The position numbers and the translations under genes were made by a program. Source: a virus (lineage: Duplodnaviria > Caudoviricetes). Taken from it: DNA of 50,307 nucleotides. Positions 3,514 through 30,854 of the stretch are shown here, piece after piece. Location: positions 1-50,307 of the IMG/VR virus record IMGVR_UViG_3300037045_000218; one strand, 5' to 3'. Below the pieces are notes generated by a model that made no database searches, was not told the origin of the DNA, and was given only the letters and a program-made list of their open reading frames with translations. Each line of letters begins with the position of its first letter. The first letter of the stretch is position 1.

Positions 3514-3536
3514 GGGTGGTAAGCTGATTTTACAGT

Positions 3537-3749: not shown

Positions 3750-3778
3750 AGATGCAAATTGACTAATTGAGCGAAATT

Positions 3779-5320: not shown

Positions 5321-5603
5321 TTTCTACTCTCCTTATAATTATTGCTTGTTTTAGATATCGAAATCATTTAAGGCAACAAGTTTTTCGTAATTTACAGCAC
5401 TCAAAAATATTTTCCAATCTTTTTACCACTATTTATAAAAATACCATATTTATAAATTTCCGTCAAATGAATCAAAATCATACAAATTTATTTCTAAAAA
5501 TAAACCGCATCAAAACCTTACGCGGCGTCTATAGTACTATTACAGATTTCGTGGAATGAAATAGCTCATCTACTACAAAATGGTACTAAGTACAATATGA
5601 TTT

Positions 5604-6617: not shown

Positions 6618-6776
6618 AATTGCTGATCTCCTGACTTTATCTTTTCAAAGCTTCTAGTTGGTCTAAGAAGCAAAGTGATGAAACTTCAATGTGATAATGG
6701 TGTCCAATTTCTGACTTACAGTAATATATGAGCATTATCTTTCATCATGCTCTTAATCAAAACTACTTTCAAATAT

Positions 6777-8081: not shown

Positions 8082-8214
8082 TATTGTCTCTCGTTTCTTT
8101 ATTTTATTTAATCATGAAGTAAGTTTTCGGGCTAATTTTTGTTTAAGATCCATATAATCGCCGATTGTATAAATCGCAATTTGTTCACAGTACCTGATTG
8201 CATTTTTCAAATCT

Positions 8215-9027: not shown

Positions 9028-9086
9028 AAATTCACCCTTTCTTGATAATCAAGATTCTGCGAATCTCACCCAGCTATACATTTCCA

Positions 9087-9165
9087 TATTTAACATTATA
9101 AAATATTTGTTGAAACATTACAATTCTAACTGTAAATTGACAGGACTTTGCAAGTATTTACTATT
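9087..9165 (-). promoter_or_regulatory. Sigma-A promoter module, copy 1 (heads the left cargo array)
   Basis: TTGTAA (9123-9118), 17 bp, TATAAT (9100-9095); homologous to 20353-20432. Confidence 0.7.
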
Positions 9166-9315
9166 CAAAGTTCCAATAGTTATCAGTTATGCTTTTGTTA
9201 ACAATAAGTACACCTACAAAAAGGTTTAACTATATTGTAACGCTGCGCTACTTTATCGTTAAACCATCCTTTGTAATTCTGTCTGCTATTTTAAGAAACA
9301 AAAGAGCCAAATTTC

Positions 9316-10893
9316 TTATTTTAATATGCTTGTGCCGTCCTTAAATTCGAATTCCAACTCGCCGTTTGATTTAATGGTCACTATATCGATCGCTGCCACC
9401 CAAAGCTTCTCATCAAATTCTTCAAGTGTACTCTCACGACTTGCGAGGTTCTGAATAAAGCCCTTTAGTATGAGACTTTTACTTTGACGCTTTCGTTTCA
9501 AAACTTCAAGTTCGGTTGCACGCTCCAAGGCCCTCCTGTGTTTTTCAAGAAAGCCATTGTTTCGTTCATGCCATTCATCCTGATCTATTGCAGAATGGGC
9601 ATTTTCATGGATGGCTTTCCTTGATAACTCTGCGGCCACTTCAATTTCCTGGTGCAACCCAACTATCTCTGAATCGATCTCAGTGCAATCACAAAGTGAT
9701 TTCTGAGCTAAACGGCAATTGGCAATCAGTTCTTCCTTATGCTCCATAATTGAATTGAAAGCTTCTAAAAATTTCTGTTTGACTTTTTCCTCGGTTACAT
9801 GAGGGGTGGTGCACTTGGTATCACCTTTGTATTTCTGGTTGCAACACCAAACCACTTTTCGATATTTTGTATTGGAATTCCAAATCTTTGAGCCATAAAA
9901 ACCGCCACATTCCTCGCACACCAGTTTTGTTGCCAATGGACTTTGGCAGGATGTAGGTCGTCCTAGCTTCTTTCGACGCTCAATCTCAACCTGAACCGCA
10001 TCAAATTCATCTGGCTCAATAATGGCTGGGTGACTATTGTGGACATAGTACTGAGGAACTTCCCCTTCATTTGCCTTCATCTTTTTGTTAAGGAAATCAA
10101 CTGTAAAACGCTTCTGCAGTAGGGCATCACCCTTGTATTTTTCGTTAGTGAGGATGGAATTAACGGTAGAAACCTGCCACCTATTCTTTCCGCCAGGAGA
10201 TGGAATGCCTTTATCGGCAAGGTGTCTTGCAATTGCTGATGAAGTTTTTCCTTCCATAAATAGGCGGTATATTGTGCGGATTATTATCGCTTCGCTATCG
10301 ACAATTTTTGGTGTGCCATCATCGCCCTTTTCATATCCTAGGAACCACTTATAAGGCATGTTGACTTTTCCATCAGCAAATCGCTTCCGCTGACCCCAGG
10401 TGACATTTTCAGAGATGGATCTACTTTCTTCCTGCGCCAATGAACTCATGATCGTAATGAGCAATTCGCCCTTGCCGTCAAAGGTGTAAATATTTTCTTT
10501 TTCGAAAAATACCTCAACACCCTTCTCCTTAAGCTTACGAACTGTTGAAAGGCTATCCACCGTATTTCTGGCAAATCGGCTGACGGACTTGGTGACAATA
10601 AGGTCAATTTTTCCAGCCAAAGCATCAGCCACCATACGGTTAAACCCGTCACGCTTTTTTGTATTCACAGCACTAATTCCTTCATCCGCATAAACCTCGA
10701 CAAACTCCCATTCAGATCGCTCTTTGATGTACTTGGTATAGTAGTCAACCTGTGCCCCATAGGAAGTGAGTTGTTCCTCGCTATCTGTAGAAACGCGAGC
10801 GTAAGCTGCCGTTCTTCTTTTAATTGATGGATTGCTACTTTGTGCTGAGGTTCGATGTAGGGTAGCTGGTATAACTCTAACCTTAGAATCCAT
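9316..10893 (-). CDS. Large serine recombinase
   Basis: AAYARVST, IVTKSVSRFARN, recombinase domain, CEECGG zinc ribbon, coiled coil; likely start MDSKVRVIPA after GAAAGGTGG. Confidence 0.95.
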   Translation of the reverse strand: MDSKVRVIPATLHRTSAQSSNPSIKRRTAAYARVSTDSEEQLTSYGAQVDYYTKYIKERSEWEFVEVYADEGISAVNTKKRDGFNRMVADALAGKIDLIVTKSVSRFARNTVDSLSTVRKLKEKGVEVFFEKENIYTFDGKGELLITIMSSLAQEESRSISENVTWGQRKRFADGKVNMPYKWFLGYEKGDDGTPKIVDSEAIIIRTIYRLFMEGKTSSAIARHLADKGIPSPGGKNRWQVSTVNSILTNEKYKGDALLQKRFTVDFLNKKMKANEGEVPQYYVHNSHPAIIEPDEFDAVQVEIERRKKLGRPTSCQSPLATKLVCEECGGFYGSKIWNSNTKYRKVVWCCNQKYKGDTKCTTPHVTEEKVKQKFLEAFNSIMEHKEELIANCRLAQKSLCDCTEIDSEIVGLHQEIEVAAELSRKAIHENAHSAIDQDEWHERNNGFLEKHRRALERATELEVLKRKRQSKSLILKGFIQNLASRESTLEEFDEKLWVAAIDIVTIKSNGELEFEFKDGTSILK

Positions 10894-12193
10894 CCTTAAC
10901 ACCACCTTTCGAAATCCTGCGGGCAGTTTCTCGCATCTCTTCAGTCCAGCTTTCTCGACGGGATTTGTGCTGCCATGTCCTTTCGACAGAATGTCCATCT
11001 CGAAAGATAAAAGTCAATAACCCTTGTCCCGGAACCAAGATTTCGGCAATATCATTTACAAAAACGTCTGTGTTGAATTTCTCGACTCCAAGCACTTCCA
11101 TGCTAAGCAAATACAGTACGTTTTCCGGTATCTGCTTTGAAGAGCACACGGACTTTCCCTCCTGTAAGTAGTTCGAACAATACCAAGCCGCCTTGCCTCT
11201 TTGAAGTTTCCGCTTATAGTTCTTTCCGCAGTTTTCACAACGAACCAAGCCGGTAAAAGGATATTGATTCGTGGGAATATTTTTTACTTCGAATTTCAAT
11301 CTTCGCTCTTCCAGAACAGCTTGTGCTCTTTCAAACAATTCTAGATCAATAATTGCAGGATGTGTATCTTCTGCATAATATCTTGGCAAATGGCCTTTAT
11401 TTCTAATCAATTTTTTCAACAAATAATCCTCAACGAACTTCTTTTGCAAAAGAGCATTGCCAGTGTATTTTTCATTTTTTATAATCTCTATAATCCGTTG
11501 ATATCTCCACTCACCCCCAAAAGGTCTGTGAATCTTCATCTTCTTCAACTTTTCCACAATTTTTCTGCCCCCCATTCCGCCAACATAGTCTTCGAAAATC
11601 ATACGAATGATATTCGCCTGCTCAATATCGATTTCGACTTTGCCCTTGATAATTCGATACCCAAACATGAACCTGAAATTTACCAGCTCACCATTCTCAA
11701 ATTGTTTGCGTATACGCCATTTGCAGTTTTCACTCACTGATCGGCTTTCTTCTTGTGCATAGCTTGCAAGGATGGTCAGCATCAGTTCGCCATCACCACT
11801 GAGTGTGTGAATGTTTTGTTCTTCGAAGAATACGTCCACACCCATGCCTTTGAGCTCGCGTACCGTTTCCAACAAGTCGATCGTATTGCGGGCAAACCTT
11901 GAGATAGACTTTGTCAGTACCAGGTCGATCTTCCCGTTTCTGCAATCTTCAACCATGCACTTGAATTCAGGTCTATTATTCTTGGTTCCTGACATCGCTT
12001 CATCAGCATAAATCCCGGCAAACAGCCAGCCAGGATGCTGCTGAATAAAGTCGCTGTAATAGCTCACTTGTGCAGTAAGGGAATGCAACATCTCATCCTT
12101 GCCGGAAGACACCCTAGCATACGCCGCGACCTTGGTTAAAGTGGGTAATGCCGCTATGATTTTTTCCTTTTTAGTGATGGTCTTACTCATCAA
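10883..12193 (-). CDS. Large serine recombinase
   Basis: AAYARVSS, LTKSISRFARN, CENCG zinc ribbon. Confidence 0.95.
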   Translation of the reverse strand: MMSKTITKKEKIIAALPTLTKVAAYARVSSGKDEMLHSLTAQVSYYSDFIQQHPGWLFAGIYADEAMSGTKNNRPEFKCMVEDCRNGKIDLVLTKSISRFARNTIDLLETVRELKGMGVDVFFEEQNIHTLSGDGELMLTILASYAQEESRSVSENCKWRIRKQFENGELVNFRFMFGYRIIKGKVEIDIEQANIIRMIFEDYVGGMGGRKIVEKLKKMKIHRPFGGEWRYQRIIEIIKNEKYTGNALLQKKFVEDYLLKKLIRNKGHLPRYYAEDTHPAIIDLELFERAQAVLEERRLKFEVKNIPTNQYPFTGLVRCENCGKNYKRKLQRGKAAWYCSNYLQEGKSVCSSKQIPENVLYLLSMEVLGVEKFNTDVFVNDIAEILVPGQGLLTFIFRDGHSVERTWQHKSRRESWTEEMRETARRISKGGVKDGF

Positions 12194-12212
12194 TTTTGCC
12201 TCCTTTCGCAGT

Positions 12213-12246
12213 TACATATATCACTCTAAAAGCCCCTAAAAGCAAG
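12213..12246 (-). promoter_or_regulatory. Repeated promoter/operator-like motif (also 43668-43700 and 44915-44948)
   Basis: CTTGCT-N-TTTAGAGTGATATATGTA-like sequence just upstream of an RBS in three places. Confidence 0.55.
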
Positions 12247-12251
12247 CACTT

Positions 12252-12407
12252 TCAGCGGTATATGCTGCCTTTTGGAAAGCCGTATTTGTCGGCTATGAGG
12301 GCATCAATTTCTATATATTCTTCTTCACTAATGATGCCTTGCTCAAGCCATTTTCGAAAAACTGTCACAGCTATGCGGTAATGAAGGATCGCCTGTTGCT
12401 TACTCAT
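12252..12407 (-). CDS. Small SHOCT-like protein of the recombinase module
   Basis: 51 aa MSKQQ...WLEQGIISEEEYIEID...KYG; position directly before the recombinase pair. Confidence 0.7.
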   Translation of the reverse strand: MSKQQAILHYRIAVTVFRKWLEQGIISEEEYIEIDALIADKYGFPKGSIYR

Positions 12408-12816
12408 GTCGCACCGCCTTTGCCTTCCCATAGCAGGCGCGTGAACAGTATTTGCGATCCCGTTTGCCATAGCCCTCAAAAGTTTCTCCACAGGTCTCGC
12501 AGGTGAAGTGTTGAACGTTTTTTCTGGTTACCGTTTCCGGATGAGCATTCCACCAGGCCATCCGGCACTTATCTGAGCAGTAATGCTTTTGCTTCTTACC
12601 AGAGGTTTGTTTGACCGAGGTTCCACACTGGCGGCAATAGGTAGCGCTCACTGATTCTGGTGCCACCAAAGCGAATCCTCCGAGGTTGTTTCTGCGGCAG
12701 TAGGATTTTATTGTATTCTCCGAGATGCCAAGAAAACTAGCTATTACCGTGTAGCTTTTGCCTTCTTTACGCAATTTTTGAGTTGCATCTTTTTGCTGGT
12801 TGTTCAAAGTCGTCAC
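12400..12816 (-). CDS. Sigma-70 region-4-like HTH + zinc-finger protein
   Basis: GKSYTVIASFLGISENTIKSYCRR HTH; CRQC, YCSDKC, CETC, YCSRAC. Confidence 0.75.
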   Translation of the reverse strand: MTTLNNQQKDATQKLRKEGKSYTVIASFLGISENTIKSYCRRNNLGGFALVAPESVSATYCRQCGTSVKQTSGKKQKHYCSDKCRMAWWNAHPETVTRKNVQHFTCETCGETFEGYGKRDRKYCSRACYGKAKAVRHE

Positions 12817-13014
12817 CTCCTAGCTTAGAAATCGCTCTTACTACCCAATGGAGGCAAACAAACCGTTTGAACGAAAAATCAGCAAAAATAATAATGCCTA
12901 CCAAAAGACAACTCTTTCGATAGACATTACAACATAAAGATCCATTCAGAACATTCCATCATCTTGGCATCAAATGCGACAACTCTAACAATTTAGGTCG
13001 TGGGTGCCTCTGTG

Positions 13015-14997
13015 CTATCTGCCAAAAATATCTCTTCTGAGTAATTTATAAATGTTAGTTTCTTGCGTTATCAACGGAGCCATTGTATCACGCAAAAAAG
13101 AAATTGTATCATTACCACATTTTGTTAACCCGAGGGCTTTCTTTGTCTCAGTGAAAAACAAACCAGACGCAGACTTCAAATCATCAGTAGGATTCCCACG
13201 TGCAATGGACTGTCTTAATGCTTCTTCCTTGATTGCTATTATCTCACCGTATTTTTCTAACTTATCACAAACCATACATAGCCTTTCAATAATTTCATCT
13301 TCAAGCAAGTAAGATTCAAGTTCTCGTAATGACAACACAGTTATATTTAGAATTTTCAGCTCTTCAGTTTCTTCTAAGCTTCTATCATCTCTATCTATCA
13401 GTTTAATGATTATATGATAAGGGTTCACTTTTTTGATTATCTCAAATAGCATTTTATCTTCTGTCTCGATATCTTTGCACGACCCAACAGAGCAAAATAC
13501 TGCGTTAGGAAACTCCAATGAAAATATTTTCGTATAACACTTCTCATCAAAATTCGAATTTTTTATTCCGCCAGAATTGCCCTCGCAAAAAATAATGAAT
13601 TTATCGGTTTCTTTTCTAATGCTGGTAGTATTATGGGAATTATCAATTTGATAGTCTCTAACCATATATGTGACTTGATTACTACCTTCGGCCATTCTTA
13701 TGGCCTCAAGGCATAAAATATTAATCATTACTGCTGGAGCACCCTGAATATACCAACAACCAACTTCGTTTTGCTGACTTAATAACCATTCCTTGGCTTT
13801 TTCAACATACCTTTGGTATCCTACGGGTTTTGTTAAAGATAAGGCTGTCATTGCTAAACAAGTAGATAAAATACTTCCTTTTTCATCTTTGGACGTTAGC
13901 GGCCAAGCTCCAGAAACCAATTGAGTTTGGAACAATAGTAATAATGCTTGATCTAAAATCTCCTTGTTTATATTAGTTGGATTAATACGTTGCCAAGCGA
14001 AAGCAATTATACTTGCAGTTGGCACATAATCAACGTAAGTAAAACCTCTTTGCTCTTTGGCTGGTTCTTCCCAATACCGCTTCCATGGCTTCGCAGGATC
14101 GATATTTCCTACGCATATTCCGTATAATAGTGCTTCTAAACCGAATTTTGAGGCCTTCCTAAGTAAAAAGTCAGACCTACAATAAAAAAACAATGGATAC
14201 AATGAATAAACTTGGTCGACCCCGCCTTGATAAGCTGTAGATATTTCTTGAGCGTACACATCAGCCCATGGTTCGTATTCATTTAGTTGAAACCATTCCA
14301 TTGCTCTAAAGAAGGTTGAAGATATAAAATCTTCTTCCTCATCTCTAGCGCTTAGAAAACTTGGAAACATAATCGAATGTTTAAATAAATCTGCAAGCTC
14401 AATTAATGAAATCTCTTTCTTCTTAGCTCTTTCTATTAATTTTTTATCATTATTATTTAGCAATCGATCTCTTTCAACATCAACACATATTGATTTTCTC
14501 CATGCTTCACTTAATTCGTGTGATGAAACAAGCGATTCTCCCTTGCTCTTAAAATATATAAGTGCTTCGAGATCGGCATCTGCGGTAGTCTTTAATGCAT
14601 ACGGATAGAGCCAAGCTTCTGCTTTTTCAATTCCTGACGGAACTAATACAAAAGCTTCTTGAAATTTATCTCTGATTGTAATCAGTTCGGGAATGTCTTC
14701 TTTAATTTCGGATCTGAACCCTAATGGCAAAAATTCATGAATCTGTGGCTTATCGCTATCTGGTTTTTCTCTTGATTTAACGTCCCGTATCTCGTATGCC
14801 CTTATTTTTATTTTATCTATATCAACAAAGTTATATATTTCTGGAATATAAATATCAATTGTCTGAAAGACACCCTCCAGAGAATACATACCCCAGTAAT
14901 ATATCATCTCAGATGCAAAAATCCAAATTTTAGATAATTGTCGTACACTTGCTGTCCGAATAAAAACCTCCATCTTTTTTTCATTTAAACAATTCAA
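13015..14997 (-). CDS. Hypothetical fusion: prenyltransferase/squalene-cyclase-like QW repeats + OLD-type TOPRIM-like domain
   Basis: LFQTQLVSGAW and WLLSQQNEVGCW repeats; IIFCEG...SVGS...LIDRDD...RELESYL; likely TTG start at 14997 after GAGGT. Confidence 0.6.
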   Translation of the reverse strand: MNCLNEKKMEVFIRTASVRQLSKIWIFASEMIYYWGMYSLEGVFQTIDIYIPEIYNFVDIDKIKIRAYEIRDVKSREKPDSDKPQIHEFLPLGFRSEIKEDIPELITIRDKFQEAFVLVPSGIEKAEAWLYPYALKTTADADLEALIYFKSKGESLVSSHELSEAWRKSICVDVERDRLLNNNDKKLIERAKKKEISLIELADLFKHSIMFPSFLSARDEEEDFISSTFFRAMEWFQLNEYEPWADVYAQEISTAYQGGVDQVYSLYPLFFYCRSDFLLRKASKFGLEALLYGICVGNIDPAKPWKRYWEEPAKEQRGFTYVDYVPTASIIAFAWQRINPTNINKEILDQALLLLFQTQLVSGAWPLTSKDEKGSILSTCLAMTALSLTKPVGYQRYVEKAKEWLLSQQNEVGCWYIQGAPAVMINILCLEAIRMAEGSNQVTYMVRDYQIDNSHNTTSIRKETDKFIIFCEGNSGGIKNSNFDEKCYTKIFSLEFPNAVFCSVGSCKDIETEDKMLFEIIKKVNPYHIIIKLIDRDDRSLEETEELKILNITVLSLRELESYLLEDEIIERLCMVCDKLEKYGEIIAIKEEALRQSIARGNPTDDLKSASGLFFTETKKALGLTKCGNDTISFLRDTMAPLITQETNIYKLLRRDIFGR

Positions 14998-15028
14998 TAG
15001 CCTTACCTCACTATTCGTTATATATTCA

Positions 15029-15140
15029 ACATCCAACCTGACCACACAACCCCGGAAAATCCAAAAAACATCTAAATCGACCACTCGCGAACCACTGATA
15101 TCTAAACTGACCACTCGTCAAGCACCGACATCTAAATTGC
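15029..15140. repeat. Four degenerate direct repeats, three at 30-bp period
   Basis: ACATCCAACCTGACCAC (15029), ACATCTAAATCGACCACTCG (15068), ATATCTAAACTGACCACTCG (15098), ACATCTAAATTG (15128). Confidence 0.85.
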
Positions 15141-15240
15141 TCTGTCACGTTCAAAATCATGCCTTTGGACTTATTCCCACGAACCGATATTTTCACGATC
15201 TTATCACATCAGATTTTTACTCTCAAACCTCGAAAAGCCC

Positions 15241-15306
15241 TTATTCCAAGCCTTTTTCACACTCTTTCATCTCTACCCTTGACATCAATACTACCGTCTC
15301 AACGTG
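15241..15306 (-). other. Isolated copy of the rlmD/rumA 3' end (att-like half site)
   Basis: CACGTTGAGACGGTAGTATTGATGTCAAGGGTAGAG... translates HVETVVLMSRVEMKECEKGLE*, the RlmD C-terminal motif, with no upstream gene. Confidence 0.8.
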
Positions 15307-15352
15307 GGTCGAACCATTTTCTATGATGTCAGATACTAATTTGGGTATATGA

Positions 15353-15443
15353 CGTAAGTGGGAACAGGTCGATGACCTTTTTGCGTTTTCGAGGCATGCG
15401 GTAACATGTCAAAGTCTTTATCTGTTCGTGAGAACATATCAAT
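15353..15443 (-). other. Three tandem degenerate upstream halves of the rlmD target site
   Basis: IDMFSRT (15443-15423), FDMLPHA (15413-15393), VIDLFPLT (15376-15353) versus RlmD VDMFPxT. Confidence 0.6.
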
Positions 15444-15607
15444 CAGAATACGGATTATTCACATACCCAGCTGGATATGCCTCGATATGGTCCGCAAACG
15501 GTGGAAAGAGCGAAAGCACATTATCAACAAAATCATAAAGATTATCAATATCATCCAATATTTTAACAGGGACCCTTTGTCTTACTCAAAAGTTATTAAA
15601 TCAATTC

Positions 15608-16657
15608 TTATCTTTTACCCATATACATTGTTTCAACATACAAGCATTTAAAATATTCTGCCCAAGAAGCATCTATTCTACCGCTGACAGTAACATTGTC
15701 ACCTTCACTGACAGCCTTGCTAACTGAGTTCAACCATGTTCTATCCCCTACACGAATTATGAGTCCATCATATATAGAATAGTCATAGGTACCTAGTGCA
15801 GTTGTTCCGTCATAATCTCCTCCAGTTACATTGATAATATGACTAGTTCCACCATCATATGTTAAATGGTGCGTTACATACGCATCAAACTCAACATACT
15901 GACCATCATACTTGCTGCAAAATTGAATATATGACATATCTTTGCTTGTAAGTACATTGAGCAAGTCTGGACAATTATCAACCGTCAATAATGGCGATTC
16001 ATTATAATATATAGAAATCTCTGCATTTGAGTTGAACTCATCACCTGCGTTCCATGGGTCAGTACTGACCCTACCAGTTTCTATCACCATTTCACGTATG
16101 TTAATCCTAAAATTATCATCATCTGGATCACAAGGAACTGCATGAATATTTGTAAAGCCTAATCCTTTTAGATGCTCTGTTAAAGTCTCTATTGTCCATT
16201 CTGAACCAATATAATCAGAAGTACTATTAGGCATCTTTATTTCACCATTAGGCATTGAATTAGATGTATTCTTTTCTTTCGATTTAGATTCATTATTATC
16301 TAGTTCAACCGAATCATTATCAGTTTTGTTTGGAAAAGTATGATAATAAACAACGACAGCTGCATTATTGGCAACCCACTTATCTGGCGAATATTCAAAA
16401 TCTCCATCAATTGATACCTTTTGGACTTCGCCATCACCCGTTAACCATCCAATCACCAAGTCATCGATTCTTTCTGTTGAAATATTTGTAAATCCCTTTT
16501 TTTCAAATATTACGATAACATCCTCGTACTTTCGTCCTTTCAGGGCACTTGAACTAGGTGGTGTTTTTGCTTGTCCACTATGTCCATCTGAACTGCCACA
16601 CGCCGACAATGACACACATATTAAAAGAATTAAGAACAAGGATAATATTTTTCTCAT
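15608..16657 (-). CDS. Lipoprotein with duplicated domain and C-terminal OB-fold-like region (DUF4839-like)
   Basis: Signal peptide with LSAC lipobox; two GFTNI...YY repeats. Confidence 0.75.
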   Translation of the reverse strand: MRKILSLFLILLICVSLSACGSSDGHSGQAKTPPSSSALKGRKYEDVIVIFEKKGFTNISTERIDDLVIGWLTGDGEVQKVSIDGDFEYSPDKWVANNAAVVVYYHTFPNKTDNDSVELDNNESKSKEKNTSNSMPNGEIKMPNSTSDYIGSEWTIETLTEHLKGLGFTNIHAVPCDPDDDNFRINIREMVIETGRVSTDPWNAGDEFNSNAEISIYYNESPLLTVDNCPDLLNVLTSKDMSYIQFCSKYDGQYVEFDAYVTHHLTYDGGTSHIINVTGGDYDGTTALGTYDYSIYDGLIIRVGDRTWLNSVSKAVSEGDNVTVSGRIDASWAEYFKCLYVETMYMGKR

Positions 16658-16898
16658 GGTTAATCCTCCTATCTTTTTGACAAGATATGATTTGAGATCA
16701 CTACATTTGCATCCGACAAGAATTTTCTTCCACCTAATGTTACTTCATGTCAATTTACTGTAATTGATTCAACCACACCAGGTTTTTTCATTAATCCTAA
16801 ATATTAATCATTAAGTGGTACACATTTAATATTTATAAATCCTGCCTCCCTAATTCTCAAGCAAACATTTTATCAATTTCCTATTGCTTGATCAGTGG

Positions 16899-16937
16899 TT
16901 AGAGCTTCAACATCATCACCACGCACTCCACATATGT
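16899..16937 (-). other. Second isolated rlmD 3'-end-like half site
   Basis: ACATATGTGGAGTGCGTGGTGATGATGTTGAAGCTCTAA = TYVECVVMMLKL*. Confidence 0.6.
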
Positions 16938-17056
16938 TCGGACCGAAGTCCGGCTACCATTGCGCATTTTAGCGGTTTCGCGGGATTGTACGACCCCTTA
17001 AAATTGCAAGGGGGGCGCTTTTATTAGGCTCTTAATCTTTGCGCAATTATATAAAA

Positions 17057-17938
17057 TCAACTTTTTTTCAACTCAATTGTCCTTAGAATAATTTCTTTTC
17101 TTGGCTCCTTGCTACCTTTTATCATCGATTCAATGATCGCTACCGATTTTAGTACTGTATCTATGCTAATATCCGGAATTTCATCATTATCATTTAGATA
17201 TCCATTAAGATACACAGCCGAAGGATTCTTAATTCCCATTCTCTCACAGACTAGCCAGCATACACATTCAGCTTCAAACTCACGTTCATATAAATCTAGC
17301 CAACGTCTATCTTCCCACCACTTCGGATTGGGAGTCCCAAGGTGACCACAATACATATGTCCCAATTCGTGAAGAATCGTTGCAAATTTAGTTTCTTTTG
17401 GATGCGCTCGATTAACCACCATATTAAACACAACCTGCAACCACATTTCTTTGTTTCCTTTAACCATCCTTATTTCATTTGAATGATCACCAGTCTGAAT
17501 AAATCCAGCACTTGAAGCGCCTCTATCAGATTCACAATAAAGTATACCATCGCATCTTAAGTTATCAGCAAATTGTTTAAATACAAAATCAGAGATCTCA
17601 CCTTCCGTTTTAAAAGGATTCAATAATTTTTCTGGAAAGGGGTCCTTTCCGTAAGTATCCATTAGTTCGAATACAAATGAGACTGGACCAAAAGGTCTTA
17701 ATATGACTAGCGGTCTTGCTCCAGGATTAATTTTCCTATTGAATCGCCTCACCCAATCTGAAGCAGATGCAATGTATTTACTACCTGGTTTTTGAATATG
17801 AATTAGCATTGCATTGTAAGGTGCTATTTGAGGAAATTTCTTTACAAACTCAAATAGCCCTTTCAATTCATTACTCTTACGATATGTGCCGATTTCTAGA
17901 AACAACTTATCCAATTCAGGGATACTTTTCTTTTTCAT
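17057..17938 (-). CDS. ArdC-like ssDNA-binding domain + ImmA/IrrE-like zinc metallopeptidase
   Basis: YNAMLIHIQKP...W.RRFNRKI..GA N-domain; HELGH and EFEAE. Confidence 0.75.
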   Translation of the reverse strand: MKKKSIPELDKLFLEIGTYRKSNELKGLFEFVKKFPQIAPYNAMLIHIQKPGSKYIASASDWVRRFNRKINPGARPLVILRPFGPVSFVFELMDTYGKDPFPEKLLNPFKTEGEISDFVFKQFADNLRCDGILYCESDRGASSAGFIQTGDHSNEIRMVKGNKEMWLQVVFNMVVNRAHPKETKFATILHELGHMYCGHLGTPNPKWWEDRRWLDLYEREFEAECVCWLVCERMGIKNPSAVYLNGYLNDNDEIPDISIDTVLKSVAIIESMIKGSKEPRKEIILRTIELKKS

Positions 17939-18008
17939 CTAAACTCCCTCCCCGTAAGGTTTTTTATTCCCCTATAAATCTCTTCATAAAGTATCACCCC
18001 ACTAATCT

Positions 18009-20081
18009 CTAAGGCATAAAGTCCAAGAACAACATTGCCTTTTTATCTTCATAAGATGCAAACTTAACGTTCCATCGGCGTTCCATAAATTCAAGGAGTT
18101 TATTCCCTCGCTCTAGGATAGCACTAGCATCCCAATCACTAAAGGCAGCTACTTCAATTTCACTGTGAGATCCATCGGTGTAACCTTTATGTGATTTCCC
18201 CGTTGGAGATTTCTTATCCGGGAAACTATCATTCTGCATACTGGAATTCTTACTGCTTGATAATGGTAACAAATTTCCCAAAGATCCCATTAAATATTTC
18301 TTTTGTTCATCGGGAAAACTAACAAATGCATTTTTCCAATAGTCTTTATCTGGTGTTTGAGGATAAACGTGCTCTATTGATACTTTATCCTTTTCGCTTT
18401 TTACAAATAGCGTCCAGTCAATTTTAGGATTACCATTTTGCATAACCTTTTCTTGTTCATATTCATATAGGAAGTAATGAAGTCCATTCCACCAATAAAA
18501 GCCACCGCCGTTTTTATAATGTCTACCAATGTAAGCCCTAAATGACTGAGTGTCAAAGGCAGTTTCAGGACTCAGCCACTCTTCAAGTCTTCCTTTTAAG
18601 GTAGCACATATATCATCTATCGAAACATCGCCATTACGCAGCTGCTTGGTAAGTCTATAATATTCACTGTTTCTATACGTTGATAATGCTCGACCAACCC
18701 GGAAAGCTAAGAAAATGAATCTTTCTATTTCTTTAAATAATTTTATTCTGCTTTGTGTACTAATACCCGATCTTACATACGAAGCCACCACAAGCGGCCT
18801 GAAGTAAGCAATCCCTATTCTATTCAGTCTATCCAGCCAAAGTTGCTCTTCTGATGTCAAATCTGAATTATTCAATGGATAGAATGAGTTGTACCAATGC
18901 ACAGCTGCAGACTGAAGGCTCTTTACATAATCCGATATTTCTTTCGGAGCAAGTTTTGCACGCATAACTGATTTGTCTTCTGTCCCGTTTTCTTCAGGTT
19001 CATCTTCGTCATCTTGATCTCTTAATTCAGTTATTGTTGTTATAGAATCCAATTTTGCTTCCGTTTTATTAAAAACACTCTGAGGAGTAAATTTTTCTTC
19101 AAGAAGAAATTTGATATAATCGTCGCCTTTTTGCCTCGTATACTGAAAATACATAATCCAGTGCGCCGTCAGAAAATCATCATCAGAAAGCGGTTTCTGC
19201 TTGTTTCGTCCAAGTTGATAATAAACATCTTTCCAAGCATCATTGATATCTTCCCGAAGAATCGATCTCTCATCATCAGTTATTTCGTATGGTTCATAAA
19301 GAGTCGTTAAGTAAATAAGGCGGTTTTTCAGCAGCTCCAAATTCGAAAGTTTTTTACCACGATTGTTCATGGTTTCAAATGCCACAAAAACATCGAAATC
19401 ATCTTCGATTTCATGTAAGTTGAACATAAGGTTCTGAGTTACTTTTTTAAAGAGCATTTCTATCTCTGAAATACCATATGTTTTGTAATAATTTACTAAA
19501 TTATCCTTAAAAAAAAGTCTGGCATTTTCAAGATTGAGAGTGTAGAAAGTCTCGGTGATGCTTCCACCATCAGGCTCACCTAATATTTTATGTCTGAGGT
19601 ATTTGAAGCTTGGATTATCCCTTTCATAACCAAATTTATATGTGTTCACTAAAAATTGAGGAGGCATTTGAATCACTAGGTATTCTTCTTTAATCTGCTT
19701 TATGCTAAATGTTCCAATATAAATATCTGAGTCGGGTTTCCCAACATTCTCTGGAATTGATTTTATTAAATTAAGTATTTCATTTATAAAAATAACAAAC
19801 GTAGTAAGCCTCTGCTGGCCATCGACAATATGAAAAGGTCTGAACGCTCGGTCTTTTATCAACCAGCGTTCAGCTGTCCAATTCTCCGCTTCATAATCTT
19901 TTCTTGTAACTTGTTTTAAAGATAACAAGCCGGTGTAGTGAAATCTTTCACTTGGAAGATTAACTATGTCCTCCCAGAAATCTTTTAATTGTCTTTCTTG
20001 CCAAGCATATCCCCGCTGATAATCCGGTATCTTGAAAATTCTATCTTTGAAAATACTCTTCAGTGATTCCAATGTTTGCAT
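18009..20081 (-). CDS. GmrSD-family (DUF262 + DUF1524) type IV restriction protein
   Basis: IPDYQRGYAW, IVDGQQRLTT, FETMNNRG, SIEHVYPQ...GNLLPL. Confidence 0.9.
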   Translation of the reverse strand: MQTLESLKSIFKDRIFKIPDYQRGYAWQERQLKDFWEDIVNLPSERFHYTGLLSLKQVTRKDYEAENWTAERWLIKDRAFRPFHIVDGQQRLTTFVIFINEILNLIKSIPENVGKPDSDIYIGTFSIKQIKEEYLVIQMPPQFLVNTYKFGYERDNPSFKYLRHKILGEPDGGSITETFYTLNLENARLFFKDNLVNYYKTYGISEIEMLFKKVTQNLMFNLHEIEDDFDVFVAFETMNNRGKKLSNLELLKNRLIYLTTLYEPYEITDDERSILREDINDAWKDVYYQLGRNKQKPLSDDDFLTAHWIMYFQYTRQKGDDYIKFLLEEKFTPQSVFNKTEAKLDSITTITELRDQDDEDEPEENGTEDKSVMRAKLAPKEISDYVKSLQSAAVHWYNSFYPLNNSDLTSEEQLWLDRLNRIGIAYFRPLVVASYVRSGISTQSRIKLFKEIERFIFLAFRVGRALSTYRNSEYYRLTKQLRNGDVSIDDICATLKGRLEEWLSPETAFDTQSFRAYIGRHYKNGGGFYWWNGLHYFLYEYEQEKVMQNGNPKIDWTLFVKSEKDKVSIEHVYPQTPDKDYWKNAFVSFPDEQKKYLMGSLGNLLPLSSSKNSSMQNDSFPDKKSPTGKSHKGYTDGSHSEIEVAAFSDWDASAILERGNKLLEFMERRWNVKFASYEDKKAMLFLDFMP

Positions 20082-20260
20082 TAAAAACCTCCTCATTTAT
20101 TCTTAAATAAACTATTTTAGTCCAAGTTTCCTTTCCTCTAGTAGCGTCAATATTTCTTGAAAAGACAACCCCGTCACTTTCTGTGCCTCTCGTGCAAATG
20201 CTCGTGATGTGTTCTCATAGGCTGAGTTGTAAATATAACTGGGATTCCCATTTGCTCTGG

Positions 20261-20329
20261 ATCAAACCCAAATTGTATAAGTCTATCTTTGCACATTCTT
20301 CTTTCATCATCTGTGAAGAGATCACCATA
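20261..20329 (-). pseudogene. C-terminal fragment paralogous to the 30984-31298 protein
   Basis: YGDLFTDDERRMCKDRLIQFGFD versus YENLFTEEERELCKDRLSKFGFD. Confidence 0.75.
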
Positions 20330-20352
20330 AATCAATAATTGCTTCTAATACT

Positions 20353-20432
20353 TATTTAACATTATAAAATATTCTCATGACCTTTACAATTGAAACTGGA
20401 AAAAGATACTAATTTGCGAAATGTATTTCCAA
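20353..20432 (-). promoter_or_regulatory. Sigma-A promoter module, copy 2 (upstream of gmrSD)
   Basis: TTGTAA (20389-20384), 17 bp, TATAAT (20366-20361); 21 bp identical to 9087-9107. Confidence 0.7.
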
Positions 20433-20512
20433 TTGATGAAACCAGCATGCCGACGTTTCAAATTATTTCACGATCATTCATCCGGTTCGTCATTTTTATG
20501 CTACTGCAGTTT

Positions 20513-20905
20513 TTACTCTATATCCGTAATTATTCTGGTAGAGTGTGCTAATTCAATTAGCTCTTCTAAAGTGATTTCTAAGTCGTCAGATATATTTGTT
20601 GGTTTCAAATTGCCTGCGTGTTCGATTCTCATCTTAACTGCTCTTCTAATTTTTCTCAGGTAAAACTTGGAGCTACCAGCTGCGGCCAACGCAGCTCTCG
20701 AATAGCTAGAAACATCTGATATCGAAGAAGATAAAATGCAGTTGCAAACTTCGCACTTAAACAAATATTTTGCCACCCCTGTCACTACTTCATCAATGGT
20801 CCAACAAGGTGCACAGCTTCCACAAATAGGGCAAGTAGGTACATTTCTATCAATAAACCGCTGCGACATACATCCAACAAAACCATCAACTCTTTTAAAT
20901 GTCAT
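20513..20905 (-). CDS. Small zinc-ribbon hypothetical protein
   Basis: CPICG and CEVC motifs; GGAGG RBS. Confidence 0.6.
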   Translation of the reverse strand: MTFKRVDGFVGCMSQRFIDRNVPTCPICGSCAPCWTIDEVVTGVAKYLFKCEVCNCILSSSISDVSSYSRAALAAAGSSKFYLRKIRRAVKMRIEHAGNLKPTNISDDLEITLEELIELAHSTRIITDIE

Positions 20906-21074
20906 AAATACCTCCGGGCGTCATTTTTAATATGCTAATTATAACATGTAAATCATTATTTTAAACACAATGAATCTCTGAGTTTCTTTTTTCGATATCA
21001 ATTGACCTCCTATCTATTAGCTTGGAGAATAAAGTAAAGTTGAGGATTTGTAAAAACTTCTTGATCCAAAACAT

Positions 21075-21112
21075 AAAAAAATGCCTACAGAGTGATTCAC
21101 TCCCGCAGGCAT
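21075..21112 (-). terminator. Intrinsic terminator after endolysin
   Basis: ATGCCTGCGGGAGTGAATCACTCTGTAGGCAT hairpin followed by T-run on minus strand. Confidence 0.75.
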
Positions 21113-21123
21113 CGCTCTCACCA

Positions 21124-21822
21124 CTATTCATATTTAATAAATGCATCTGTAAAGCCGGCTGCTTTGACCTTGGAAAGTGCCCTCTCCGCATTGGATCTTA
21201 CACTATACGCTCCAACCTGGACCCGGAAGAGTTTCTTTTCTTCAGACTGATGAGAAACCGGGTTTGTAAGAAGCTTCTTCACATCAGCCCGAAAAGCATC
21301 CATGCTTTTCCCGTGTCTTGAGAACCAGTGCTTTGGATCGATATGGTTGGAAGCAGTGCCTTTTTGATATCCCTCGAAGTGTCCGGTAATATCATTCTCC
21401 GTCAGATCATAGAGTTTACACAGATACACGCATAGCTCAATCGCTTCATTGTAGATTTTGTTGAAATAAACGAAGTCAGTCAGACCGTCCTCGCAGATTT
21501 CAAAGCCGATGTGTGTGTCGTTTGCCGTACCTCCGGCATGCCAACCTCGATGATTCCAGGGCAAAGTTTGATAAGTAGCTATAGTGCCATCTTTTAGTTT
21601 GCCAATGAATGCATGAACACAAACCTGTCTGCCTCCGGGCTTGTCCTGATTCCAGTGGTTGTTGTACTCATTTCTACCGAGTAATCCATCATCCGGCCCA
21701 ACATAGCGCTTTAGGTTTGGATTGTTCGCCCCAGTGGAATGCACCATGATTCCTTTTGGGGCGATGGTTTTGCCGGCTTTATAGCAGGCATTGTTGGTTA
21801 ATATTTGTTTTTTCAGGTTCAT
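21124..21822 (-). CDS. Endolysin: N-acetylmuramoyl-L-alanine amidase (Amidase_2) + SPOR domain
   Basis: GIMVHSTG, GWHAG, GFEICE, NHIDP; LFRVQVGAYS...GFTDAFI. Confidence 0.93.
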   Translation of the reverse strand: MNLKKQILTNNACYKAGKTIAPKGIMVHSTGANNPNLKRYVGPDDGLLGRNEYNNHWNQDKPGGRQVCVHAFIGKLKDGTIATYQTLPWNHRGWHAGGTANDTHIGFEICEDGLTDFVYFNKIYNEAIELCVYLCKLYDLTENDITGHFEGYQKGTASNHIDPKHWFSRHGKSMDAFRADVKKLLTNPVSHQSEEKKLFRVQVGAYSVRSNAERALSKVKAAGFTDAFIKYE

Positions 21823-22230
21823 TTATCTATCCTCCGTGTTTTTATTAAGTTGCTCTAAAATGTCTTTAAGATTCTGTGGCACAGGCAATCCGATGTGCGC
21901 TACGTTTTCAAGAATGGAGACACCTTCGTTACTAAGATAAAAAAAGATGACGGCTGTTCTGATCACTAAACCGTCTTTGATAAAGCTTTGATCGATGATA
22001 TGTCCAATGCCCACCAGGGCGAATATGATCACTTTTTTGAAGATGCCACGAAAGCCTACATCGCTGGATAGGTTTTTATCCAGCACCGCACACATGATGC
22101 CGGAGATGTAGTCGACGACCACAAATGCAACAAGTGCATACAAAAATCCATCAAACCCTCCCAAGAAGTAGCCCACCCATCCTCCAACAGCTGCAAATAG
22201 TACTTGAATCCAATTCCAAATATCCTTCAT
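21823..22230 (-). CDS. Phage holin (holin_4_1-like)
   Basis: Hydrophobic helices, DYISG, NEGVSILEN...GLPVP; adjacent to lysin. Confidence 0.93.
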   Translation of the reverse strand: MKDIWNWIQVLFAAVGGWVGYFLGGFDGFLYALVAFVVVDYISGIMCAVLDKNLSSDVGFRGIFKKVIIFALVGIGHIIDQSFIKDGLVIRTAVIFFYLSNEGVSILENVAHIGLPVPQNLKDILEQLNKNTEDR

Positions 22231-22302
22231 TATTGATCCTCCATTTCGTTTTATATTAAAAAGAACACCTCGATTTGAAGTGTTCTAGCAGAACTTCTGA
22301 TC

Positions 22303-23310
22303 CTATTTGATTATTTGCTTTTTCATAATGCTTTTTATAAACGATTTATAGAACTCGTCCGTTTCAGGGTTGTACCCTTTTATACCTTCCCAAGTATACG
22401 GTATAACTTTTTTAACATCCTCATAAATGTGCAGGATATATTTCTTTCGCAGTTCAGCGGTATTTCCAAGTGTCTGTATCAGATCATTCTTGATTGGGTG
22501 ATTACTCGCAATAAAGTGCTCATTTCGATCAATCAGCTTATGAATGTACTTCACACTAGGTAAAGAGTCGCTTTTTTGCTCATTGCAAAACTCGTGAGCT
22601 AAAACTAAATTCCAAATTTCATCGTGATAAATCACCTGCCGAGGCATCACATGATCTACATGAATCTTATGACCTTCCAGACTTTCTCCGCAGTAAAAAC
22701 AGATACCTTTTTGATAACCATTCAGTACCGGGATCAAGTTGGTAATATTTTTTCTTTCATAACCTGTAACGAGATAAATTCTTCGAACATCATTGGCCAA
22801 TTTTTCATTGCTTCTTTTTTGTTGAAACGCTGCCTCAATTAAATCCCATCTTGAATTGACTTCTTCGATTAGGCTGAACTCGGCGTTTGTTTCAAACAAC
22901 AGGAATATATCGTCTTTTAGTATCAATCCTTCGTTAGAGTATTCGTAGAAATCCATCGGGATCTTTTGGTTGTTCACCGTATGGAAGCGAGGAATGACAT
23001 CGACAAAAGCGTTCTTTTCAACATAGTCGATAGCCTGTGCTTCATCCACCAACCCTAGATTGAATCGATTTACTATGAACTCCATCTTGGTTTGTCTCGC
23101 TGGAGTACCTAGTTGTGGCATATTGTTTTGAAGCCGCAATTTATACAACTGAAAAAAAACATCCGCTAGCTCAGTCATGGTGACCTTATCTTTTCCTTGT
23201 TTGGTCAGATCATACAAAGCTTTTGCTAATGCGATTTTATAGGTAGCAGTATTCATTCCATACAAAATAATGGATCGCCAGTAATCTTCAGTTCCAAAGG
23301 GTCTACTCAT
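22303..23310 (-). CDS. HNH endonuclease moron with N-terminal helical domain
   Basis: NTATYKIAL N-terminal motif; CFYCG...HVDHVMP...WNLVLAHEFCNEQKSD. Confidence 0.8.
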   Translation of the reverse strand: MSRPFGTEDYWRSIILYGMNTATYKIALAKALYDLTKQGKDKVTMTELADVFFQLYKLRLQNNMPQLGTPARQTKMEFIVNRFNLGLVDEAQAIDYVEKNAFVDVIPRFHTVNNQKIPMDFYEYSNEGLILKDDIFLLFETNAEFSLIEEVNSRWDLIEAAFQQKRSNEKLANDVRRIYLVTGYERKNITNLIPVLNGYQKGICFYCGESLEGHKIHVDHVMPRQVIYHDEIWNLVLAHEFCNEQKSDSLPSVKYIHKLIDRNEHFIASNHPIKNDLIQTLGNTAELRKKYILHIYEDVKKVIPYTWEGIKGYNPETDEFYKSFIKSIMKKQIIK

Positions 23311-23387
23311 GAACTCACCTCAATTATACTCGTACCCTCATTCTAACATAAATCACTTGCCTACAAAATGTGTTCATCTCAAAGAAC

Positions 23388-24746
23388 CTATTCATAAACC
23401 CTGCTACTACTCGAGCGGTCTTTGGTGATCCTTCCGATGTAGTCGCTGAGTCTTCCTTTTCCAATCTTTCCTCCACTATCCACTGTGAAATCCGTGTAGA
23501 AACCATCCCCGCCAAATCGATGAGTGATTCCCGTGATGAGTCCGAGGTTTGACATTCCTGTATCTCCAATGATGATGGCTTCATCCCCAAGAATCAACTG
23601 AGGTCTAAATGGACCGGTGAAACTCTCGACTTTACCGACATATTGGAGGGTGTTTGCTATTTGATTGGCATAATTTTCAGCATCTGAAAGTGTGGTACCT
23701 TCCGGCAAATTGATATAGAGCGTCTTATTCGCTTGGAGATTCCACCCGCTATAGGTTTCCACATCCCGATAAACCTTCATGCTAAAATCCTGGTTATGGA
23801 TACAGACTCTTCTGTAGGCTTCTTGATCATCCCGGATGATACTTCTTGTGAAGATATCTTTGTCTCTGTAAAATGTGTAGCTGGTGTTTCTTGTGAATCC
23901 TGCATATGAGTTTGAACCGATCACGACCGTACCATCCACCAATTCTTTTATCTGCCAATTTTCCAAAGCCTTTAGTATTTCCATAACGCCTTCTAGATAG
24001 CTCATGTTTACGCCGAACCGGTATCCAGCATACGTACTGGTGTTTTCCACAAACATTTCATCCGAACTTATATTGGCCTGAAATAAAATATCCTTAAGTA
24101 TTTCATGCAGTAGCCCATACGGGTACGTGTTATCCTCGTCGAAACTCTGATCTCCCAGCGCTTTTCCAATGATGCTTCGCCCATCCACACAAACCACTTC
24201 GTTCAGCAAAGAGAAATTGCTTCTGTCCACGTAAAACACCCCCATTGTGTACGGTTCGCTGTCGCCCAGTATTAGTTCAAACTCCACCTTGCTGCCTGGT
24301 GAAAGTAGGCTTGATTCCTCGGATATCGCTACATTGCCTTTGTATTCCGGGTTTTCATTAAGCGGATTCTGCAGGCTTAAAGTAAAGGTGGTGATCGGGG
24401 TATCTATGGAATGTTTGATGGAGCCACTATCTAGATACTTCTCCATTTCAAAGGCGAATTCATTTATGAGCATTTTATGTTTATTCTCTGATTTATAAAC
24501 ACCGAATATTCCAAATCCTGAAAGCAGACTTACTTCTTGATGTGATATTGATGTATCATTCGAAATACGAACTTCATCTTGATAGATCACAGATTCCCAG
24601 TCACCTTGATGGATCTTGTTGGTTGGCAAGCCATATAATAAACCGTCCTTAACATAGAAAACTTCTGCCTGTGTATTGGGAAAGTGAATCAAGTCCGAGT
24701 ATTGACCTCCAACAATATTTTCAATTACTTCAAATATAAGTTCCAT
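23388..24746 (-). CDS. Tail tip/baseplate hub-like protein
   Basis: Position at end of tail module; C-terminal GPFRPQLILGD...ITGITHRFG. Confidence 0.65.
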   Translation of the reverse strand: MELIFEVIENIVGGQYSDLIHFPNTQAEVFYVKDGLLYGLPTNKIHQGDWESVIYQDEVRISNDTSISHQEVSLLSGFGIFGVYKSENKHKMLINEFAFEMEKYLDSGSIKHSIDTPITTFTLSLQNPLNENPEYKGNVAISEESSLLSPGSKVEFELILGDSEPYTMGVFYVDRSNFSLLNEVVCVDGRSIIGKALGDQSFDEDNTYPYGLLHEILKDILFQANISSDEMFVENTSTYAGYRFGVNMSYLEGVMEILKALENWQIKELVDGTVVIGSNSYAGFTRNTSYTFYRDKDIFTRSIIRDDQEAYRRVCIHNQDFSMKVYRDVETYSGWNLQANKTLYINLPEGTTLSDAENYANQIANTLQYVGKVESFTGPFRPQLILGDEAIIIGDTGMSNLGLITGITHRFGGDGFYTDFTVDSGGKIGKGRLSDYIGRITKDRSSSSRVYE

Positions 24747-30823: not shown

Positions 30824-30854
30824 GTTCATCACCTCCATGTGGGAAATAAGCGTG

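Follow-up and report, generated by a model that had tools for sequence, protein, structure and literature searches.

The IMG/VR virus record IMGVR_UViG_3300037045_000218, analysed here over its whole length as a window of 50,307 bases (rated 97% complete and 'linear'), carries a block of about 8.1 kb between the lysis and recombinase modules of a temperate Clostridia phage. On balance, this block appears to be a mosaic of pieces from the rumA/rlmD 3'-end integration hotspot, lodged in a slot for accessory phage genes (a moron slot). It contains a complete palindromic attachment (att) site resembling attP (remB with its upstream arm), a degenerate core of the same kind (remA) and what, judging from gene order, reads as the end of an rlmD-integrating element without its recombinase. 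A preliminary description had interpreted the region as an integron-like, reshufflable array of recombinase-free defence cassettes, each followed by an rlmD-type scar and possibly moved by the neighbouring recombinase pair. That interpretation is partly supported: the analogy captures the stacking of units at one site, and it fails on the defining features of integrons and on the link to the recombinases. Its premise, that the 3' end of rlmD/rumA is a target of serine recombinases, is documented, together with tandem insertions, in passages of five papers (PMC4120198, PMC4701971, PMC5357655, PMC11578063, PMC12785378).

The 8.1-kb insert (about 21073-12931) separates the terminator of the lysin gene from a minus-strand module (9316-12816) encoding a helix-turn-helix (HTH) protein (12816-12400) and two serine recombinases, SR1 (12193-10883) and SR2 (10998-9316), both of which have the Resolvase, Recombinase and Zn_ribbon_recom domains (Pfam) of large serine recombinases. 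The lysin gene (21124-21822, minus strand) encodes an N-acetylmuramoyl-L-alanine amidase with a SPOR domain (Pfam Amidase_2, 6e-18) and is the final conserved phage gene ahead of the insert; its homologues, 66-78% identical, directly precede HTH-SR1-SR2 in relatives, and this module is conserved after the holin/lysin genes in most of 90 related loci. The gap between lysin and HTH is about 130-620 bp in eight of the 10 viral loci found with SR1, the remaining two ending short of the lysin, and likewise in many of the 80 genome loci found by SR1 alignment. The left edge of the insert is the hairpin and T-run of the lysin terminator (term1, 21074-21113, minus strand, read from the sequence), at a position agreeing with that of the terminator following the amidase stop codon in the related locus L002. 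The right edge is a second, L002-like copy of the lysin terminator (term2, 12883-12930, minus strand): homology to the lysin-HTH spacer of L002 and L012 returns only at 12930, with the 3' part of the L002-like terminator, and window 12930-12817 is 81% identical to L002 5797-5911 and to L012. The GC content of the insert is 0.35-0.39, versus 0.42-0.46 in the flanking phage genes. Relatives without the insert, edges bounded by terminators and a lower GC content thus identify the block as an insertion in an accessory slot after the lysis genes; as in a phage moron slot, it is absent from related phages at a conserved lysin-HTH junction. Its outer ends are copies of the lysin terminator, not rlmD-type cores. 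Megablast searches with 9000-22300 returned only matches to the lysin gene (73-79%) among phages and only an 86-bp match to remB among plasmids, and an Rfam scan of 12000-21500 gave no match at E <= 1.

The preliminary description had placed three rlmD-type scars in this block, referred to here as remA, remB and remC, and all three sequences were found at those places on the minus strand. For comparison, RlmD genes were fetched from five genomes with SR1 relatives, four of which had rlmD; the C-termini of the fetched proteins read ..VDMFPxTxHVETVVLMSR... A 30-nt weight matrix was built from 14 independent copies of the core, with the window's own copy excluded, and in 200 block shuffles the maximum score averaged 7.5 bits, with a 99th percentile of 17.1. 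The site remB (15306-15241, core 15306-15277) encodes THVETVVLMSRVE, followed by 10 further codons and a stop; it matches the C-terminus of a full-length RlmD (L093) at 13 of 13 residues (blastp-short against the six-frame window, E = 3e-9) and scores 48.5 bits. The remA core (16905-16934, minus strand, with its reading frame running to 16899; ..TYVECVVMMLKL*) is degenerate and scores 21.0 bits, ranking second of about 100,000 positions. Its VECVVMM is a natural variant, present in the L138 row of the alignment, and it differs from remB mainly at third codon positions, as judged by eye; the two did not match as DNA repeats with blastn-short. The last ~11 rlmD codons, from His-Val-Glu, are thus represented by remB and, in degenerate form, by remA. 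The third sequence, remC (12963-12989, minus strand), does not: its score of -9.4 bits (rank 160) and its alignment with the 3' arm of the terminator following homologues of the 652-aa cargo gene in L166/L170 rule it out as an rlmD remnant, it is absent by blastp against the RlmD tails, and it is instead the decayed 3' terminator arm of that gene. A chance resemblance to rlmD, which is true of remC and would also fit the noise-level blastp result for remA on its own (E = 2.6 against five RlmD tails), has a negligible probability for the other two sites and is already refuted there, by the E value of the remB peptide and a whole-module nhmmer E of 3.4e-71 in the one case, and by a score above the maximum of all 200 shuffles in the other.

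The remB core opens a conserved module of 280 nt (15027-15306, minus strand), recognized from an alignment of 15 copies; an nhmmer model built without the window matched 15308-15027 over 284 of 285 model positions. The module comprises a stretch that substitutes for the RlmD C-terminus and ends at 15241, a hairpin resembling a terminator, GTTCGTGGGAAT (15184-15173; GTTCGTGGGAAC) and a direct repeat, GGTCRNTTAGATGT, in four copies; no convincing consensus RNA fold was found for the 15 copies (-4.6 kcal/mol, little covariation). Upstream of CAY GTT GAG the 15 copies diverge, and contigs of other organisms covering 15028-15306 depart from the window exactly at 15306, reading on as GTCGACATGTTTCC.., that is, the VDMFP of full-length rlmD. 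The rlmD homology therefore ends at 15306, as at a fixed crossover point. The dyad centre of the palindrome described below lies at 15306/15305. Among 399 sampled Clostridia genomes, 91 gave matches to 15450-15000 used as a DNA query, mostly to the ~30-nt core only, and 17 had a module match of at least 230 nt, from the core to about 15027, at 67-82% identity (counted from the match table). The corresponding query for remA (17100-16640) gave short matches elsewhere in the query in the same genomes, mostly at the start of the lipoprotein gene, and none at remA.

Three kinds of sequence precede such cores: the body of rlmD, a 'type I' arm (GAAATAGCCTAAAAAyTT) that follows small recombinases, and a 'type II' arm (AAGACATCAAT-N9-10-CTCGnGC). 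The arm in the window (15307-15446, minus strand) is of type II and holds TGACATCA (15331-15324) and a 12-bp palindrome, GTTCGTGAGAAC (15424-15435, plus strand). This type precedes cores flagged in seven bacterial genomes and on the Enterococcus faecalis plasmid LR962847, and homology to the window arm extends over 15442-15359 in G138, G078, G246 and G255, with an nhmmer match at 15414-15443. Together, the type II arm and the remB core form TGACATCA-N36-TGATGTCA, a palindrome centred where rlmD homology begins, so that remB with its upstream arm is a complete palindromic attP-like site. By comparison, remA is a lone right half-site, with no matching left arm and an upstream flank classed as 'other'. 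Two copies of the 12-bp palindrome GTTCGTGRGAAC flank the att centre, each at a distance of about 125 bp (15173-15184 and 15424-15435), and may be an accessory protein-binding site; its left copy and flank also recur, alone or near cores, in G078, G246 and G255. On LR962847, the type II arm and core (L001 6048-6095, 48.6 bits) lie about 160 bp from spw in a multiresistance region, 1.6 kb from a truncated serine recombinase, which shows that the att site travels between replicons, including resistance plasmids.

The same parts are found in a regular order in other genomes. In the fetched loci, a full-length rlmD is followed by the module, one variable gene and a serine recombinase, and mini-elements of 2-4 kb at rlmD (L130, L134, L137, L138 and L140; G307, G138, G267, G014 and G333) consist of the 280-nt module, a variable gene, a serine recombinase, a 110-aa open reading frame (ORF) and a short conserved arm. 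The recombinases of these mini-elements are 230-320 aa long, with Resolvase and Recombinase domains and no zinc ribbon, and they are 75-97% identical between genomes in which RlmD is only 45-62% identical, indicating that the elements are mobile. A complete 3-kb element is present in L140 (rlmD-module, an SRA/HNH-like gene, recombinase, 110-aa ORF, short arm and displaced rlmD tail), and tandem arrays occur in L130, L134, L140, L129 and L131/L132. In relatives, therefore, the core opens the unit (core, module, cargo, recombinase), contrary to the preliminary description, in which each cargo was followed by its scar.

The module and the 652-aa cargo gene (13015-14973, minus strand) are also found together outside the window, where the large serine recombinase that accompanies them is a different, convergent one. 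Five metagenome contigs (all five matches) have the 652-aa gene, with 75-92% identity in DNA to window 15048-12982. Of the three contigs that reach upstream, L167 shows the module's end, L169 a type II arm and a shortened module, and L170 the last repeat only. Downstream, L166 encodes a convergent large serine recombinase 50% identical over 138 aa to that of L139 (E = 5e-40), L170 retains the last 32 residues of the recombinase (E = 4e-9), and L168 has a decayed tail, recognized by eye. In two viral contigs, L161 and L162, a core is followed by the module, one gene, a convergent large serine recombinase and then a lysin with 72-83% identity to that of the window or of L131. This recurring order of core, module, gene and recombinase points to one end of a family of rlmD-integrating phages and mini-elements, and the window, by the same order, would hold such an end without its recombinase. 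In relatives a recombinase is located within 0.7-1.5 kb of the module; in the window, SR1/SR2 are 3 kb away. Prophage ends with a holin and paired 520-aa serine recombinases split by a 150-aa ORF were also seen in L139, L131 and L134 (G135, G128 and G138), 4-5 kb from sites with a type II arm and core, and the lysins of L139 and L131 are 75-77% identical to that of the window. Cores near these prophage ends show a repeated association of this phage group with the rlmD hotspot.

The proposal that the neighbouring recombinase pair acts at the scars found no support. No core of at least 18 bits was present in any of 90 loci around relatives of SR1/SR2 (1.39 Mb; the two best scores were 14-16 bits), nor was any rlmD-like peptide or rlmD gene found in these loci, and in the four genomes with an rlmD match this gene was far from the SR1 locus. 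SR1 and SR2 are about 40% identical to the paired recombinases of rlmD phages. A different candidate for their own att site, or else a terminator, may be an imperfect palindrome of 43 nt located 50 nt past the SR2 stop codon (9223-9265; GGTTTAAC..GTTAAACC, with the arms GGTTTAACGATAAAGTAGCGC-A-GCGTTACAATATAGTTAAACC; family I18 of the repeat search). It is partly shared with the sequence following SR2 in L022 (ATGGTTTAACG..GCGTTACAATA), where the left half and the centre are found again.

The history that we favour for the block would begin at the rumA/rlmD 3'-end hotspot. The attP-like remB site, the 250-nt arm with its four direct repeats and one cargo gene correspond to the standard left end of a family of rlmD-integrating elements, which includes the 2-4-kb mini-elements with a 230-320-aa serine recombinase and phages with paired large serine recombinases. 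No cognate recombinase is present in the window, where the unit breaks off some 35 nt past the cargo stop codon and is joined to the phage's own terminator and HTH-SR1-SR2. The older, decayed half-site remA would stem from tandem accretion in the donor, the block would have entered the phage en bloc by recombination outside att sites, and the sites would now be orphans, usable at most in trans by a co-resident recombinase of the rlmD type. The window fits a fragment, in the accessory slot of another phage, that comes either from an rlmD array or from around the attP of an rlmD phage. Several points weigh against this account. No copy seen scores better than the remB att site, whose intactness points to use that is recent or still going on; the window, too, shows the order of module, one cargo gene (the 652-aa gene) and recombinase genes (HTH-SR1-SR2), and, given the ~40% identity to the recombinase pairs of rlmD phages, SR1/SR2 may be functionally linked to the site; the relatives of SR1/SR2 are at most 71% identical, a distance at which specificity can change; no donor array was found; and the contiguity of the 30-nt core rests on the original assembly and on two abutting unitigs of similar depth, with no contig spanning it.

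The last of these points was considered with contigs from four public metagenome runs (X1-X4), X3 and X4, which contain small shares, being used for the shared core region only. Two groundwater runs from two studies each hold at least half of the sampled words of the window. In X1, the probable source run, the unitig for 4001-15306 has a depth of 55.8 and the unitig running from 15277 to 24000 and beyond has a depth of 62.3, their overlap being the 30-nt core; in X2, the depth is about 4-5 on both sides, and remA lies within a contig (16466-17344) that shows no differences. The locus could be an assembly chimera of two unrelated molecules joined at a 30-nt core common to many organisms in the sample, as the overlap of the X1 unitigs by 15277-15306 only and the many contigs of other organisms over 15028-15306 would allow, but the depths of the two sides are nearly equal in both X1 and X2, the mean depth is raised by only about 7 through the other X1 contigs over the core bin, and a repeat of 30 nt is shorter than a read. 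Such a chimera is very improbable, and the join at the core is probably right. No joint between 15306 and 16934, or between the copies of the D1 repeat described below, was among the joints listed (15 of 22), but contigs cannot reveal rare variants and this listing consequently says nothing about excision.

The break of the unitigs exactly at the core, with similar depth on both sides in two samples, is also what would be seen if remB were the phage's own attP, the phage integrating in the 3' end of host rlmD, supplying a surrogate C-terminus and carrying morons on both sides, and the contig being either an excised or circularly permuted form or the result of assembly from attR through the shared core to attL. 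The literature documents rlmD-flanked prophages (PMC12785378), the canonical order of module, cargo and recombinases is retained in the window, and the record, rated nearly complete, has no rlmD. We nevertheless consider it unlikely that remB is the attP of this phage: the L002-like lysin terminator directly before HTH shows that the adjacency of lysin and HTH is ancestral, L012 and L015 keep lysin-HTH-SR1-SR2 contiguous inside chromosomal records, none of the 90 SR1/SR2 relatives has a core, and the palindromic candidate site after SR2, partly shared with L022, is a separate one. The insertion of a foreign rlmD-type fragment remains our preferred explanation.

The lipoprotein gene (15608-16657, minus strand) is the sole gene bracketed by two cores. 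In a working cassette array, remB would be a phage-borne landing pad at which a serine recombinase, in trans or in cis, inserts, excises or swaps recombinase-free, core-bounded units of a reshufflable defence array. The cores at 16934 and 15306 have the same orientation and lie 1,628 bp apart, and no coding sequence resembling a serine recombinase is found in 15306-16934, so that two att-derived sites in the same orientation enclose no recombinase, as in a cis-mobilizable unit. Among 11 same-strand intervals between cores in bacterial and viral loci, nine have a recombinase-like sequence and two do not, the interval in the window being a third recombinase-free one; one of the two, L129 2351-6163 (G319 contig 109), encodes a 644-aa Piwi-domain protein and a 350-aa SIR2-like protein, a pair that looks like a short prokaryotic Argonaute defence pair. 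The remB site is an intact palindromic one, flanked symmetrically by 12-bp palindromes at a distance of about 125 bp, and a type II arm and core beside spw on an E. faecalis plasmid shows such a site moving between replicons. Recombinase-free units at att cores, one of the claims made for this DNA, are therefore found as far as the lipoprotein between remA and remB and the two intervals in relatives are concerned, whereas the outer ends of the insert are not cores and only one unit is bracketed. Moreover, remA is degenerate and lacks a left arm, the window has no cognate recombinase, relatives of SR1/SR2 never accompany cores, and no turnover was seen to bear out a reshufflable array, since X2 has the same cargo sequence, including the contig across remA. 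To our knowledge, two attP-like sites are not normally a substrate pair for large serine recombinases. A working cassette array is, accordingly, rather improbable, and the block is better described as a hotspot fragment in a moron slot. Nor does it qualify as an accretion array at a chromosomal target gene, given that a PF05958 search of the whole window found no rlmD-family gene and that the flanks are the phage lysin and recombinase modules; five related viral records likewise gave no PF05958 match.

Within the cargo, the gene at 18009-20096 (minus strand) encodes a GmrSD-type (DUF262 + DUF1524) type IV restriction-like enzyme (GmrSD_N, 3.6e-29; GmrSD_C, 5.2e-16), an identity announced in the preliminary description and confirmed by Pfam PF03235 and PF07510 and by PADLOC HEC-06 (3e-47). 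The neighbouring 293-aa protein (17057-17938, minus strand), earlier called ArdC-like, did not prove to be so: it is weakly M78/IrrE-like, with matches to Pfam Peptidase_M78 (E = 0.001) and to the C-terminal part of PADLOC RT_III-A (1.2e-8) only. The lipoprotein call was upheld, the protein carrying a DUF4839 domain (Pfam, 9.6e-6; phrog_29396, 2.3e-48). No relatives of it were found in viral contigs, and the 399 Clostridia genomes contained one good homologue (G322), with no core of at least 12 bits within the 16 kb examined around it. The last gene of the insert, the cargo gene of the module, was listed as an ORF of 699 aa from GTG 15114, but its likely start is ATG 14973, which gives 652 aa. 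Its description as a TOPRIM fusion has weak support: residues 505-630 match fused PARIS AriAB models (PADLOC, E = 2.6e-6), making the C-terminal part weakly TOPRIM/PARIS-AriAB-like. No relatives of this 652/699-aa protein were found in viral contigs.

Nearly all long ORFs of the window lie on the minus strand. Their order starts with the small terminase, S-adenosylmethionine synthetase, a ParB-methylase, the large terminase, a GmrSD_N/NsnA gene, portal and capsid; it continues with a long coiled-coil protein that is probably the tape measure (28643-30838), then an HNH protein, the holin and the amidase, followed by the region in question; and it ends with HTH, SR1, SR2, an HNH type IV restriction-like gene, genes of unknown function, PASTA, DnaJ, FRG and an aldo-keto reductase. 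The low-GC gene (0.31-0.36) between the large terminase and portal genes (40149-41303; DUF262/GmrSD_N, PADLOC NsnA 1e-72) is a second defence-type moron, within the structural module. At 45019-48243, a ParB-N-fused DNA methylase and a full S-adenosylmethionine synthetase, phage-borne genes for methylation support, adjoin the small terminase. Downstream of SR2, a run of low-GC genes (2088-9027), which may be phage cargo or host flank, comprises the HNH type IV restriction-like gene (PADLOC, 5e-24; phrog_15103, 1e-83), two genes of unknown function (434 aa and 337 aa), PASTA, DnaJ and FRG (PDC-S15), with the aldo-keto reductase next (519-1529); a homologue of the 434-aa protein is also located after SR2 in L053. 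In a synteny comparison, the 50-kb record of L011 shared only the recombinase module with the window. A direct repeat of 65-71 nt, 74% identical and with a 27-nt stretch at 85%, occurs at 9081-9151 and 20347-20417 (families D1/D12 of the repeat search). Both copies contain a near-consensus promoter on reading their sequences (TTGTAA-17 nt-TATAAT); the one at 20347-20417 (D1a, minus strand) lies upstream of a 53-aa ORF and the GmrSD gene, and the other precedes the gene for the HNH type IV restriction-like protein. These are the only two copies of D1 in the window; they bracket the stretch from GmrSD to SR2 and could be a shared promoter/operator or a recombination relic.

The rumA/rlmD hotspot is known mainly from streptococcal and enterococcal resistance elements. 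Our observations add that environmental Clostridia widely carry this att core along with a conserved arm and small recombinases (91 of the 399 genomes have some match, and 17 the full module), that rlmD-type arrays carry defence genes, and that a phage genome can harbour a complete copy of the att site. Were the site active, phages could transport defence cargo together with a docking site for further elements; if it is inactive, the locus is still a clear example of phage accessory regions built from pieces of a chromosomal integration hotspot. A more ambitious view would be that a portable palindromic att site of the rlmD type, with a repeat-bearing 250-nt arm, is common to Clostridia phages and mini-elements, and that short serine recombinases lacking a zinc ribbon stack and swap defence units of one or a few genes there, as a serine-recombinase counterpart of integrons or of the staphylococcal cassette chromosome (SCC); the window would then be a landing pad on a phage, and the array would be moved by transduction and reloaded from resident rlmD islands. 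We regard this view as quite improbable.

Among known systems, the closest is the hotspot itself. At the rumA/rlmD tail, heterologous serine-recombinase elements have been described that insert in tandem and replace the C-terminus with one of their own (PMC4120198, PMC4701971). Also described are 'nested recombinase islands' located at rumA (PMC11578063), accretion in which some elements are decayed (PMC5357655) and, as mentioned above, prophages flanked by rlmD. The window resembles these integrative and conjugative elements (ICEs), integrative and mobilizable elements, vanG elements and prophages in its target, the last ~11 codons of the gene for the 23S rRNA U1939 methyltransferase, in the element-supplied C-terminus, in tandem heterologous insertion at one point and in the use of serine recombinases. 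It differs in that its cores lie inside a phage genome without rlmD, that its junction is a full palindromic attP-like site with a 250-nt arm bearing four direct repeats, and that the recombinases of its relatives are either proteins of 230-320 aa without a zinc ribbon or large pairs. In the window, homology breaks off and the dyad is centred at the CA in the codon for His, some 5 nt ahead of the GA reported for vanG/ICE-r.

Units bounded by att sites and devoid of their own recombinase, which arise when an element integrates into a resident one's attL or attR site, are known as cis-mobilizable elements (CIMEs). The lipoprotein unit and the two recombinase-free intervals in relatives resemble the CIMEs of ICESt1/ICESt3-type islands. 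Tandem accretion is described for such islands in a passage of one paper (Pavlovic 2004 and Bellanger 2011, as cited in PMC5357655). These systems differ from the window in having tyrosine integrases and in residing at tRNA or ribosomal-protein genes of chromosomes; mobilization of the unit in the window is putative. SCC composite islands, inserted at rlmH with ccrA/ccrB, likewise have serine recombinases and a target at the 3' end of a gene for an rRNA methyltransferase, and they form arrays that include recombinase-less elements bounded by repeated integration-site sequences. The small recombinases of the rlmD elements match the NCBIfam CcrB/CcrA models only weakly (72 bits versus a cut-off of 900), the target gene and clade are different, and no Ccr-type recombinase lies beside the cores in the window.

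Integrons stack promoterless or recombinase-free gene units at one recombination site. The window shares none of their defining parts: Pfam scans of 30 of its larger ORFs gave serine recombinases only and no IntI tyrosine recombinase, there are no attC-type folded sites and no attI/Pc organization, and the units have their own terminators. The label 'integron-like' is, therefore, not borne out in this respect. Whereas attC sits at the 3' end of an integron cassette, cores of the type found in the window open their units, and the module alignment has no conserved fold. Finally, like other phage moron slots, the locus is a low-GC insert with defence genes, located between a lysin terminator and an integrase module and absent from relatives, but, unlike the usual moron slot, it carries att sequences of another element family.

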